Below, one piece after another: positions 4,730 to 27,782 of a stretch of DNA of 64,000 bases (position 1 is the first letter of the stretch; each line of letters opens with the position of its first letter). Source of the stretch: Mayamaea pseudoterrestris (lineage: Eukaryota); the NCBI GenBank assembly GCA_027923505.1, contig BROI01000002.1, positions 1,240,001-1,304,000 on the forward strand. The letters are read 5' to 3'. A program made the translations under genes and the position numbers. The notes below the pieces were generated by a model. The model was given only the letters and a program-made list of their open reading frames with translations, had not been told where the DNA came from and did not search any database.

Positions 4730-5697
4730 TGATGAACACTCCAAGTATTCAGCAGCAGCAGCTAAATCAATCCATCTTGCTGTTTGTCGTAGTCGCCGGC
4801 GTGACGACAGCTGCGCTCCTCAGCAGGCGGAGTCGAAGAAATACGTCTAGCAGCGACACGAATAAGCCATTCAGCATGAATGAAACGTCACCACCCTTTC
4901 AGCATGTGGCGCAAAATATTGTTCCAGATCTGCAAAACTACTTGAGCAACGCCGAACAGCTCCTGCTCTACGCCTTGTACAAGCAAGCCACGGTGGGTGA
5001 CGCTCCACTAAAAGCTCCACCAGTGTACCACGCTGTCGCTCACGCCAAGTACAAGAGCTGGAGCAGCTTGAGAAACATGAATGCTAAAGAGGCGCAGGAG
5101 AAATACGTCTTTGCCGTGCGGCAAATGCAGGAGCGCGTCAGTGGAAACAATGGCAACGGCGACGCGGAGGAGGACGCCTATCACTTTTACGACGACGACG
5201 ATACGCGCAACATGGCACCCGTGCAGAGCCGACCCGCCGTGGAGGAGGATGATGATTTGCACGAGGAAGAAACAGGCGACTCTACAAATAGCAATGCACC
5301 ATCAGCCAACGTTTTTGCAACTCTCTTTGCCGCCGCCGCCCGAAACGACGTGATTACGTTGCGAGAGACGCTCGAGGCCAACACAAGCATTGACGTGAAC
5401 CAAGCGTGTCCACGTGGACAAACCATGCTGCATTTGGCGTCGGACAAGGGTTCACTGGCAGTCGTAGAATACTTGCTGCACAAGTACGCGACAACAATCA
5501 ATGTGAATGCGTTTGACGCGCATGGCATTTCAGTGCTGCAAACGGCCGCCATTGCCGGACACTTGGACGTTTGTCGGTTGCTGCTGGAGGCGGGAGCAGA
5601 TCCCCAACAGTGCGACCATGACGGAGACTCGGCCAAGTCGTGCGTCATGGAGGATGGAAGTGACGAGTTGAAGGCGTTGTTTCGAGAGTTTGATTAA
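4730..5697 (+). CDS. Membrane-anchored acyl-CoA-binding protein with C-terminal ankyrin repeats
   Basis: ACBP motif LLLYALYKQATVGD...AKYKSW; ankyrin motifs GQTMLHLAS and GISVLQTAAIAGHLDVCRLLLEAGADP; N-terminal hydrophobic segment ILLFVVVAGVTTAALL. First ATG about 4730 (the ORF track starts at GTG 4633). Confidence 0.9.
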
Positions 5698-24367: not shown

Positions 24368-24546
24368 CACGGAACAAACCTGTCACGCTTTATCGTAGCG
24401 GTACTTAACAAGTCGTAAAGGTACTGAATCTTTCGTCGCGATCCACACAACACGAGACTTATTATTGATCGGCCATGGAAGGATTGCCGCTGCTTGCTGC
24501 CCTCATTTATCTCCTTGCTCAGTCTCTAACTCGTATTTCATCAAAC

Positions 24547-25350
24547 ATGAGTAACGAATCACTTTCACCTCCTCCTCCTATTAGCAGCAGCAATAGCAAC
24601 AGTCGCCCCCAGATTCTCCTCATGGGCGACTCGCTGACGCAGCTTGGTTTCGAAGGATGGGCTTCCACACTGGCCAACGTGTACCAGCGCCGCGCCGATG
24701 TGCTCAATCGAGGCTACTCGGGCTACAACACCAAGTTTTACCTGCAACTGCCGGTGGAAACTCTCGACAATGTCGTTTTGGTAGTCATTTTCTTTGGAGC
24801 AAACGATGCGGCACTATTGGAGCAGGATGCGCATCATCACGTGCCAGTAGAATTATACAAGGAGAATCTGAAAACACTATACGAGCGCACGAGAAGTTCC
24901 ACCAATTGCAACAACATTTTGTTCATTACACCGCCTCCGGTCCATCACGAGCAGCGACTCGCCTACCAGAAGCAACGCTACGGCGCAAAAGCGACGGGCG
25001 TCTTGGAACGAACCTTGGATCACACGCAGCGGTACGCAGCTGCCTGCCAGCAAGTGGCGAATGAACTAAACGCTCCGTGCTTGGACTTGTTCAACGTCAT
25101 GCTGCATGCCAATAAAGACTATGGAATCTACTTGAGTGACGGCTTGCACTTTAGCGTTGACGGACATGAGCTCGTCGGCGAGCAAGTGCTGCGTGCCATT
25201 CAAACACACTTTCCGCAACTGCACGTGGAGCAGGATGCGGCGACGGGTCAGTGGTGCAACCGCAGCTCCCAGTGTCAAGGTCTTTCGAGCCAGGGGCCGT
25301 ACCATGATGAGATTGACGCTAACAATGTGGCAAAAGCGTTTACAAAATGA
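24547..25350 (+). CDS. IAH1: SGNH/GDSL esterase, isoamyl acetate-hydrolyzing esterase-like
   Basis: GDSLTQ, DVLNRGYSGYNT, FFGANDA, ITPPP, DGLHFS; ATG at 24547 (alternative 24475). Confidence 0.9.
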   Translation: MSNESLSPPPPISSSNSNSRPQILLMGDSLTQLGFEGWASTLANVYQRRADVLNRGYSGYNTKFYLQLPVETLDNVVLVVIFFGANDAALLEQDAHHHVPVELYKENLKTLYERTRSSTNCNNILFITPPPVHHEQRLAYQKQRYGAKATGVLERTLDHTQRYAAACQQVANELNAPCLDLFNVMLHANKDYGIYLSDGLHFSVDGHELVGEQVLRAIQTHFPQLHVEQDAATGQWCNRSSQCQGLSSQGPYHDEIDANNVAKAFTK

Positions 25351-25727
25351 GCGAGCAGAGAAAAGACAATAGAGACGAATCAAACTCAAACCTGTCTCAA
25401 TATAGATCACTAGTGCATGGTTGCTGCATATCTTACAATATCCTACAATACTCTTGTCGAGGTTACGGTAGTTCCGTCACTGAACCTATGGGGCACTGTG
25501 TTATCGACCAATGCCTGGCATTTCAAAATATGAGTCATGCAAGTATCACAATGACCGGCAATGCAAAAGATGAGTCATTTCTGTGACCATCGAGGGCTGA
25601 CGGAGTGAGGTGCCCCGACCACCACACAAAATCGATTACCGAGAGCCTCCATATCTCACAACAAAGGATCTTGTCAGCATCAAACAGTATTACAAGTAGT
25701 AAATACATACTGCAATATAACAAGATT

Positions 25728-25934
25728 ATGGACAACTTTGTGAAAAAGATTCCTGGAAGTCCACCATTGAAAGCCTTTGTTTGTGCCGCGTGCATTAGCG
25801 CCGCCTTTGCCTACCCCGTCTTTCGCACTCAAGACAAGACCAAGCAGGGGCACGACTTGTTTTCGCAGGAAAAACCCGAGGCCATTGCGTCGGGCCAGGA
25901 GCGAGCCAGGCGGGAGCAGCGCAAGAATTTTTAA
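25728..25934 (+). CDS. Small (68 aa) single-pass membrane protein of unknown function
   Basis: MDNFVKKIPGSPPLK, hydrophobic AFVCAACISAAFAYPVF, then GHDLFSQEKPEAI and a charged tail; coding-like codon usage after an A-rich leader. Confidence 0.65.
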   Translation: MDNFVKKIPGSPPLKAFVCAACISAAFAYPVFRTQDKTKQGHDLFSQEKPEAIASGQERARREQRKNF

Positions 25935-25948
25935 TAAAAACGAACAAC

Positions 25949-26334
25949 ATGATGGATGACGACGAGCAGCGCAAGGCGTTTCAAGCCTTCATGCTCGGAG
26001 GCAACAAGCAAGCGTTGCAGCAGTCACCTTCACCTTTACAGTCATCGCCATCACCATTAACAAGTCCATCAACCAATAAAAAACGCAACCATGCTGCATT
26101 TCGTCGCAAATATGCCAGTGCGCTCGCCGCCTTTGACTCTTGCTTCTGCAAGCACTGGCTCGACGCGGATGACCAGCTGCTGGCCTGCGTCGGATCCATT
26201 GCCAATCTGCGACAACGCATTTTCGTTTCCAGTCGCGCGTTAGTGTTGCAAAAAGCAGAAGATGCAAATCGTGAAGATGACCAAGATTTGCGAATGCGTA
26301 CTTGCTACAAGAGTCACGGATATCGCCAAGTCGT

Positions 26335-26365
<31 letters not shown>

Positions 26366-26809
26366 TACTGCCTGTCGCGTGGCGACTTGGAACTGACCCT
26401 GACGGACGAATTGCTGCAGCACGAGCGCATGACGAGCTTGGCGCGACGATTAATTTCGTCGTTGCACCAAGACCAGGAAACGCTTGGTCGGCGATTGGAG
26501 GAGCTACTGCTGATGCTGCACTTGGATGAGGAACCTGCAACGGAATTTGCAGCAATGTTGGACGAGCGTCGACAATTGTATTTGGCAACGTCGCACGAAC
26601 TCTATCGCAAGCAACGACTGTTGCAGCAACTATTCGACTCGATTAGTGATGACATGCTGTTTCAGGAGGGTTTGGAAGCAAACGATAATGACGCGAGTCC
26701 AAGGCGCGTGGCGAAACAAATTGCGAAAGTTTGGTCGCGATTATCCTCCACCAGTCATTTATATTGCTACAAGGAGCTGATTGAGAAATTAGATGTGCGA
26801 AATAAATAG
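25949..26809 (+). CDS. Hypothetical coiled-coil protein (weak resemblance to C1orf109/AIRIM by eye)
   Basis: 286-aa ORF with ACAAC-ATG start; helical segments WLDADDQLLACVGSIANLRQRI and HELYRKQRLLQQL; poly-S tract. Confidence 0.7.
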
Positions 26810-27260: not shown

Positions 27261-27782
27261 ATGAGTCATTTGTTCCGATCACTCCTTCCTTCCGTCACAA
27301 AATCTCACTCGGAGAGACGCATACTTCGAACCAATCCGCATCACTTGTTCAATATTATTAATGACGTTGACAAATATCATACGTTTCTGCCGCTCTGCAC
27401 GCGATCCAAAATAATTTGGAGGAGCAGCAATGAATATCGCGCCACGTTGACCGTCGGCCTTCCGCCGCTGCTAGAGGAAACGTACACTTCCCACGTTGTC
27501 TCCAATGCCACGCGCCTCATTGTGACGGCCAAGAGCATCCAGAGTCACCGTTTCAAAGCCTTGTCGAGCGAATGGAAGCTACGTGCGACTGACAATGAAG
27601 ACGAGTGCTTGGTGGATTTTAACGTGTCGCTCACCGTTAGCGATCCGTTCATTGTGGCGACACTGGATCAAATACTCCAGCAAGTGGCGGGAAAACAAGT
27701 GGATGCCTTTGAAAAGCAATGTCAAAGGGTTCCATTTGCATCAACAATGGGAACAGTCGCTCAACTTGGTCCGAAGCAATGA
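27261..27782 (+). CDS. COQ10: Coenzyme Q-binding START-domain protein
   Basis: HSERRIL, LFNIINDVDKYHTFLPLCTRS, ATLTVGLPPLLEETYTSHV, FKALSSEW, DAFEKQC. Confidence 0.88.
   Translation: MSHLFRSLLPSVTKSHSERRILRTNPHHLFNIINDVDKYHTFLPLCTRSKIIWRSSNEYRATLTVGLPPLLEETYTSHVVSNATRLIVTAKSIQSHRFKALSSEWKLRATDNEDECLVDFNVSLTVSDPFIVATLDQILQQVAGKQVDAFEKQCQRVPFASTMGTVAQLGPKQ

Follow-up and report, generated by a model that had tools for sequence, protein, structure and literature searches.

In a 64,000-nucleotide (nt) stretch of the genome of the diatom Mayamaea pseudoterrestris (NCBI GenBank assembly GCA_027923505.1, contig BROI01000002.1, positions 1,240,001 to 1,304,000 of the forward strand), hereafter referred to as the window and numbered from its first letter, two open reading frames (ORFs) lie in close succession on the + strand, and the question addressed here is whether a single messenger RNA may encode both of their products. 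The upstream frame, ORF1 (25728..25934), encodes a predicted single-pass membrane protein of 68 amino acids, as judged from the ORF listing, its hydropathy and its homologues. The downstream frame, ORF2 (25949..26809), encodes a protein of 286 amino acids with a predicted all-helical, CINP/C1orf109-like fold, as judged from the ORF listing, a structural model and its homologues. The two frames are separated by a 14-nt spacer, TAAAAACGAACAAC (25935..25948, + strand), which opens with a second in-frame TAA, so that ORF1 closes in a tandem TAA TAA, and which gives the ORF2 start codon an A at position -3. ORF1 is preceded by an ATG-free leader of 155 nt (25573..25727, + strand), which is presumed to be a 5′ untranslated region (UTR) or a promoter-proximal region; the nearest ATG upstream of the leader lies at 25570.

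An initial annotation of this DNA had described two same-strand ORFs 14 nt apart, an ATG-free interval of roughly 220 nt between their start codons, start contexts of GATT-ATG and ACAAC-ATG, and a membrane peptide as the upstream product. All four descriptions hold: the coordinates and the spacer TAAAAACGAACAAC agree with the first, the interval between the two start codons is exactly 218 nt with no ATG in any frame, the contexts read aagattATGga for ORF1 and aacaacATGat for ORF2, and the upstream product contains one hydrophobic segment, at residues 14-32. ORF1 itself contains neither an internal Met codon nor an out-of-frame ATG, and ATG-free stretches of 218 nt constitute just 2.0% of all such stretches in the 64-kb window (Poisson P = 0.015). 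The gaps to the same-strand neighbours of the pair are 378 nt upstream and 452 nt downstream, so the 14-nt gap is exceptional locally. The upstream neighbour is a gene for a GDSL/SGNH esterase (24475-25350), and the downstream neighbour is a gene for a protein with a COQ10-like START/polyketide-cyclase domain (27261-27782).

In the ORF1 protein, residues 14-32 (LKAFVCAACISAAFAYPVF) form the sole hydrophobic segment, with a mean Kyte-Doolittle value of 1.75, and two motifs stand out, K-K-I-P-G at the N-terminus and the invariant GHDLFSQEKPEA. Homologues of ORF1 were recovered by a single-sequence search (15) and by a profile search (276), and the family has in common the K-K-I-P-G motif, the hydrophobic helix and an invariant GHDLFSQ..P block, which answers the earlier question of whether the 68-amino-acid frame is conserved. 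Conservation is centred on the membrane helix and the mid-protein motif rather than on the C-terminal end. All homologues that carry an organism name are from diatoms (Discostella, Thalassiosira, Cyclotella, Stephanodiscus, Cyclostephanos, and Striatella), and ORF1 proteins are present in the MMETSP transcriptome records of Thalassiosira punctigera and Striatella unipunctata. No Pfam family matched ORF1 at E values up to 1. The exact 68-amino-acid sequence was not found in a collection of 15 billion proteins, whereas the exact ORF2 sequence is present there and comes from NCBI; the source genome record therefore probably lacks an annotation of ORF1. Leads from the ESM Atlas to COX6C-, SMIM20- or DUF4748-like mitochondrial membrane proteins were weak (scores of 0.86-0.91) and were not used as evidence.

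At many loci, the ORF1 homologue is interrupted by a short intron that lies directly ahead of the K-I-P-G motif (L022/L023 at 4926-5004, L001, L005, L009, L010, L013, L014, L020, L028, and L030-L034). For L023, this intron (79 nt, GT-AG) is proven by a spliced contig, L024. The ORF1 of the window is intronless, so that the intron was gained or lost within the family.

For ORF2, 10 family members were collected and an exhaustive profile search returned 296 representatives; one homologue is from Thalassionema nitzschioides. The family has a conserved N-terminal Met about 10 residues ahead of an AF..FMLGG motif. Sequence-based assignment gave little: the ORF2 of the window had no Pfam match at E values up to 1, PF15011 was absent among the 10 family members, the ORF2 of the window included, at E values up to 10, with scattered coiled-coil noise only, and the ORF2-family profile retrieved chance matches only (E ≥ 0.5) from the PDB sequences, with no CINP or C1orf109 chain. 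Among 46 further representatives, PF15011 appeared in one, below the threshold (18.2 bits against a cut-off of 27, E = 0.0024), the remainder being noise.

The AlphaFold2 model of ORF2 is all-helical, with a mean predicted local distance difference test (pLDDT) score of 84.8 and a predicted template-modelling (pTM) score of 0.74. With this model as the query, ranks 1-6 of the Foldseek search were CINP and C1orf109 chains of the human 55LCC complex (probabilities of 0.82-1.00, E values of 0.1-0.2). The VIA structural alignment placed CINP (8cih_A) first with a Z score of 14.6, over 166 aligned residues at a root-mean-square deviation of 3.0, and ranks 2-4 (Z scores of 13.4, 13.2 and 12.6) were chains of CINP-C1orf109 and 55LCC entries; generic helical bundles start at a Z score of 12.4, so the margin in favour of CINP/C1orf109 is small. 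In addition, an Atlas feature search, which is independent of the structure searches, led to CA109-like clusters of PF15011 with a score of 0.94. These results suggest that ORF2 is probably an adaptor protein of the CINP/C1orf109 type.

CINP and C1orf109/AIRIM are described as cofactors of the human SPATA5-SPATA5L1 '55LCC' ATPase, with the OPNR-OAP1-OAP2 adaptor as the plant counterpart; human and plant proteins of this type serve AFG2/SPATA5/CIP111 ATPases, which release Rlp24-type placeholders from pre-60S particles (PMC12332008). ORF2 resembles these proteins in its predicted fold, in its top structural matches and in the Atlas lead to PF15011. It differs from CINP and C1orf109 in that no family member exceeds the Pfam threshold, no PDB chain matched the profile, and generic bundles lie close by in Z score.

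Two observations on ORF2 are recorded beside this assignment. A run of AGC (serine) codons at 26326-26374 of the window encodes SSSSSSSSS, falls in a loop that is modelled with low confidence (residues 121-136), and was flagged as a skipped repeat in the read mapping. One ORF2-family protein, P0263, carries an N-terminal Utp11 domain (E = 3.8e-19), which probably reflects the merging of a neighbouring gene for ribosome biogenesis into the gene model and could hint at a functional neighbourhood.

Whether the two frames belong together was addressed in JGI metagenome contigs, which were searched with the ORF1 family alone; 89 stretches fitted the pattern and 40 of them were confirmed as ORF1 loci. 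A hidden Markov model of the ORF2 family was then applied to these 40 loci. An ORF2 homologue was located directly downstream of ORF1, on the same strand, at 38 of them, and the order ORF1-ORF2 was retained in 30 of 32 distinct sequences after near-identical contigs had been collapsed. The ORF1 proteins of these loci are just 35-59% identical to that of the window over the best aligned segment, which indicates that the linkage is old. The adjacency of the two genes, whose conservation the initial annotation had left to be checked, is thus kept at most of the loci found.

The spacing between the frames varied among the relatives. Spacers were measured in 14 relatives, at 2-163 nt, with four no longer than 17 nt; at most homologous loci the spacer was 46-163 nt. 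Spacers of 2, 3, 8, 14 and 17 nt were found at five loci representing four distinct lineages (the window, L017, L029, and L039/L040). The earlier remark that 14 nt cannot accommodate both a 3′ end and a promoter extends to the four relatives with similarly tight spacing. None of the 38 contigs ends between ORF1 and ORF2, and the frame offset from ORF1 to ORF2 differs among the loci, being 0, 1 or 2.

The evidence that comes closest to a direct demonstration of a bicistronic messenger RNA was obtained in a relative. Except for two removed segments, the contig L024 (2,075 nt) matches the genomic contigs L022 and L023 at 99.9-100% identity; the segments are a 79-nt GT-AG intron inside the ORF1 N-terminus and a 222-nt GT-AG intron that begins about 22 nt past the ORF2 stop codon (L023, 6349-6570). 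Because both removed segments have their GT...AG ends in the sense orientation, L024 must derive from spliced + strand RNA. It carries ORF1, an unspliced spacer of 147 nt and ORF2 in a colinear arrangement. L024 is the only contig for which splicing is proven by a genomic counterpart. Downstream of the 3′ UTR intron, the spliced contig extends over another 605 nt that contain no long sense ORF; a 3′ UTR of this length, with an intron in it, is unusual for a compact genome.

Other contigs were considered as transcripts and set aside. The position of ORF1 near the 5′ end of the short contigs was not accepted as a general sign that they are transcripts, as L009 starts in intron-like sequence; this sequence ends in an acceptor just before the K-I-P motif, and L009 is therefore not a mature cDNA. 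About 27 nt beyond the ORF2 stop codon, L016 terminates in eight A's, a putative poly(A) tail that is suggestive but too short to count.

The structure of L024 also bears on the possibility that ORF1 and ORF2 are exons of one protein, joined through an unrecognised intron, a frameshift or readthrough. Within the window, 37 unscored GT..AG combinations would join the two frames, and the ORF2 frame is open upstream to position 25796, as such a fusion would require. Nevertheless, the spliced L024 retains both the ORF1 stop codon and the spacer, which excludes, for that species, the ORF-fusing splicing that had been named earlier as a ground for abandoning the bicistronic interpretation. In addition, the position of the ORF1 stop and the initiator Met of ORF2 are conserved in independently predicted proteins, and the variable frame offset and the tandem TAA TAA argue against frameshifting or readthrough. 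No fused protein was seen among the ORF1 matches, the searches having covered proteins of 37-119 and 36-172 amino acids only. Taken together, these observations make a fusion of the two frames highly improbable.

If ORF2 is reached by ribosomes that scan through ORF1, ATG codons should be scarce upstream of it. The significance of the ATG depletion derives from the family and not from the sequence of the window: given the Met-free protein of ORF1, the share of sequences without an ATG is 50% when the codons are shuffled and 46% when they are resampled synonymously. ATG codons were therefore counted at 15 loci (the window and 14 others), which were chosen by the analyst for a clear in-frame, intronless ORF1 ATG and a located ORF2 start; the 25 loci that were dropped had an ORF1 start that was unclear or split by an intron, had an ORF2 N-terminus that could not be located, were duplicates (L003 and L021), or carried a stand-alone ORF1 (L035 and L036). 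Expected counts were calculated from the ATG frequency of each locus.

Between the ORF1 and ORF2 start codons, 16 ATGs were observed at the 15 loci, compared to 112.8 expected, a depletion of about 7-fold, and no ATG at all was present at 8 of the 15 loci, over distances of 218-385 nt. Essentially the same result was obtained without the duplicate L040 (15 ATGs compared to 106.8 expected at 14 non-redundant loci). The 100 nt upstream of ORF1 were ATG-free at all 15 loci. At the same loci, a stretch of equal length at the start of ORF2 contained 117 ATGs, compared to 14 in ORF1. When the ORF1 proteins were held fixed and their codons were resampled synonymously with the codon usage of the ORF2 of the same locus, the out-of-frame ATGs inside ORF1 were still depleted (8 observed, 5 of them in L002, compared to 26.7 expected; combined P = 4.7e-5).

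A single-site test, which is independent of the choice of loci for the ATG counts, pointed in the same direction. The invariant His-Asp pair of ORF1 would create an ATG if the His were encoded by CAT, and CAC is used instead at 24 of 33 non-redundant loci, whereas the His codons in the ORF2 regions of the same loci are predominantly CAT (198 CAT and 70 CAC; P of about 3e-8 for the CAC bias at His-Asp). The two stand-alone ORF1 homologues, L035 and L036, both have CAT at this site. The start contexts differed as well: a purine occupies position -3 at 6 of 14 ORF1 starts, compared to 12 of 14 ORF2 starts (P = 0.046). In the window, a local matrix was built from just 23 long ORFs, ORF2 included, and the ORF1 context scored below 21 of them. 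These features, namely the ATG depletion, the choice of the His codon and the start contexts, are predicted by leaky scanning on a shared messenger RNA and not by a separate promoter for ORF2.

The stand-alone homologues (L035, 503-733; L036, 60-308) are followed by genes on the opposite strand, with no ORF2 downstream, and both lack the K-I-P-G motif. They indicate that ORF1 can exist as an independent gene.

Several observations weigh against a bicistronic messenger RNA that is read by leaky scanning. With respect to the start codons, positions -3 and +4 are those that matter most for start recognition, and the ORF1 start of the window has an A at -3 and a G at +4, being unusual only in the T at -1 and at -2. 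The absence of ATG in the window itself is a weak signal, unremarkable given the Met-free ORF1 protein. Elsewhere in the family, ATGs do occur between the two starts (6 in L002, 3 in L019 and 3 in L026), CAT is used at His-Asp at 9 of 33 loci, the first ATG past the ORF1 stop codon is not the ORF2 start at 9 of 35 loci, L024 itself has an ATG in its spacer, and in many of the dropped loci 1-4 ATGs lie downstream of the GHDLF motif and ahead of ORF2. Furthermore, the loci are phylogenetically related, and the P values given above thus overstate their independence. With respect to the RNA, L024 is a short-read contig, which could merge two overlapping transcripts, and it does not represent a single molecule. 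Three sequencing runs from one study cover intergenic DNA as well as genes and yield two allele-like versions of the contig, and they therefore look like DNA and carry no information on transcripts.

One of these runs, X1, showed 34 allele-like differences over the upstream esterase gene and its 3′ flank (24714-25321). No differences were listed between 25322 and 26142, which comprises the leader, ORF1, the spacer and the start of ORF2, and they resume at 26143. The difference-free segment could reflect purifying selection or a shared haplotype.

Since several lineages have ATGs inside ORF1, leaky scanning cannot, on these sequences, be the universal mechanism, and some lineages must reach ORF2 otherwise, either by reinitiation or from a transcript of its own. 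The latter route could be imagined for the whole family. In this case, two overlapping monocistronic transcripts would be produced, with that of ORF2 starting inside or just upstream of ORF1 and those of ORF1 ending within ORF2, and the adjacency of the genes would reflect a shared or compact promoter region. The ATG-free spacers of 46-163 nt at most of the loci also resemble an ordinary 5′ UTR, the tolerance of some lineages for ATGs inside ORF1 fits such an arrangement, and assembled contigs cannot prove a single molecule. Conversely, overlapping transcripts do not predict that ATGs are purged inside ORF1 in all three frames (8 compared to 26.7 expected; CAC at 24 of 33 loci), nor that the constraint on His-Asp is relaxed at the two stand-alone loci. 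The spacers of 2, 3, 8, 14 and 17 nt are too small to contain both a 3′ end and a promoter, not one of the 38 contigs stops between the frames, and L024 is spliced on either side of the pair and continuous across it. We therefore regard overlapping transcripts as unlikely, although they are the most serious of the alternatives.

A different alternative accepts one messenger RNA and assigns ORF1 another role, in which it would be mainly a conserved-peptide upstream ORF that throttles ORF2 in cis, without an independent function of its protein, and ORF2 would be translated by reinitiation or leaky scanning. ORF1 is indeed short, upstream and conserved at the peptide level, and the spacers of 2-3 nt in L039/L040 would suit termination-reinitiation. 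In the green-algal system, removal of the ORF1 start raised an ORF2 reporter more than 5-fold (PMC11291117), so that any translated ORF1 would also act as a throttle. However, ORF1 occurs without ORF2 at 2 of the 40 loci, with opposite-strand genes next to it, its conservation lies in the helix and the mid-protein motif and not in the C-terminus of the peptide, and 68-84 codons are long for efficient reinitiation. A mainly regulatory ORF1 thus appears improbable, and more so than overlapping transcripts.

The reading that accounts best for these observations is a bicistronic messenger RNA from which ORF2 is reached by leaky scanning, to which we assign a probability of roughly 0.6. According to this model, one capped messenger RNA would begin in the ATG-free leader upstream of 25728 and span both frames. 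A part of the scanning 40S subunits would initiate at the ORF1 AUG and give rise to the 68-amino-acid membrane protein. The remaining subunits would bypass this codon, find no further AUG over the next 218 nt and begin translation at the AUG of ORF2, which is well placed with its A at -3, and this initiation would yield the CINP/C1orf109-like protein.

The initial annotation had proposed that one messenger RNA may make both proteins, and this proposal is upheld in part. It gains from the conserved gene order, from L024, from the ATG depletion, from the choice of CAC and from the weaker -3 context of ORF1 in the family; it loses from the A at -3 and G at +4 of ORF1 in the window and from the ATGs inside ORF1 in several lineages. 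Across the family, the ORF1-ORF2 pair would represent an ancient, diatom-wide bicistronic unit, for which we infer co-transcription at this locus, translation of both frames and leaky scanning from sequence comparisons; for translation, the indirect evidence is that both ORFs are conserved at the peptide level.

What the pairing might serve is a matter of speculation. One doubtful scenario is that the 68-amino-acid protein would be a membrane anchor or a regulatory subunit of a diatom adaptor of the CINP/C1orf109 type, acting with an AFG2/Drg1-class ATPase that matures the 60S subunit. It would tether this machinery to an organelle or nuclear-envelope membrane, and the bicistron would fix the ratio of the subunits. 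In that case, stramenopiles would have acquired leaky-scanning bicistrons independently, and these would have been retained from a time before the sampled diatom groups diverged.

If the bicistronic reading is correct, leaky-scanning bicistrons would extend to stramenopiles, and diatom gene finders would be missing small upstream cistrons, as ORF1 appears to be unannotated. The pair would also offer a native short spacer and a design rule for two-gene expression in diatom engineering. In addition, an uncharacterised, diatom-wide membrane protein of 68 amino acids would be linked to a probable ribosome-maturation cofactor, which constitutes a testable functional hypothesis.

Nuclear polycistronic messenger RNAs are now accepted in green algae, some fungi, red algae and a few plant loci. 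The plant CDC26-TTM3 bicistronic transcript offers a comparison, in that one messenger RNA encodes a small, conserved protein followed by a larger one and the arrangement is kept over a whole major lineage; the proteins themselves differ from those of the diatom pair. The initial annotation knew of no such arrangement in diatoms, and our search of the full-text literature likewise gave no report of an endogenous nuclear diatom bicistron, the matches being 2A-peptide engineering, plastid or viral cases.

Conserved-peptide upstream ORFs are similar to ORF1 in that a conserved peptide is encoded upstream of the main ORF on the same strand and in that its translation must reduce initiation at the main ORF. 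They differ from it in that the ORF1 family has at least 276 members, is also found as a stand-alone gene, and does not have its conservation focused on the C-terminus. A peptide of that class occurs only upstream of its main ORF, and L035 and L036 carry ORF1 elsewhere.

The closest known systems are the bicistronic loci of green algae, for which translation by leaky scanning has been shown experimentally (Gallaher et al., 2021, PMC7896298; Dallo et al., 2024/2025, PMC11291117 = PMC11892635). As described there, these loci have short inter-ORF regions and a weak ORF1 context, and the expression of ORF2 is lost when an upstream AUG is added (PMC11291117). Diatoms and stramenopiles are named in neither PMC7896298 nor PMC11291117 (0 occurrences).

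The diatom pair agrees with the sequence-level description of the green-algal loci in spacer length, in AUG depletion (L002, L019 and L026 excepted) and in conserved gene order. In both systems, a small upstream ORF is followed by a very short spacer, that of REX1S-REX1B also being 14 bp, few or no AUGs precede ORF2, the ORF1 context seems weaker across the family, and the gene order is deeply conserved; the upstream ORF of the green-algal loci is, like ORF1, often a small membrane or organelle protein. Conversely, diatoms belong to another supergroup, the stramenopiles, and the gene pair is another one. The green-algal loci are documented by long reads, proteomics and reporters, whereas the diatom pair is known from its sequence. 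Moreover, ORF1 of the window has an A at -3 and a G at +4, and a part of the diatom family is not depleted of ATG. Overall, the pair described here is new with respect to the lineage, the diatoms, and to the genes that it joins, whereas the kind of arrangement that it represents is already known from green algae.

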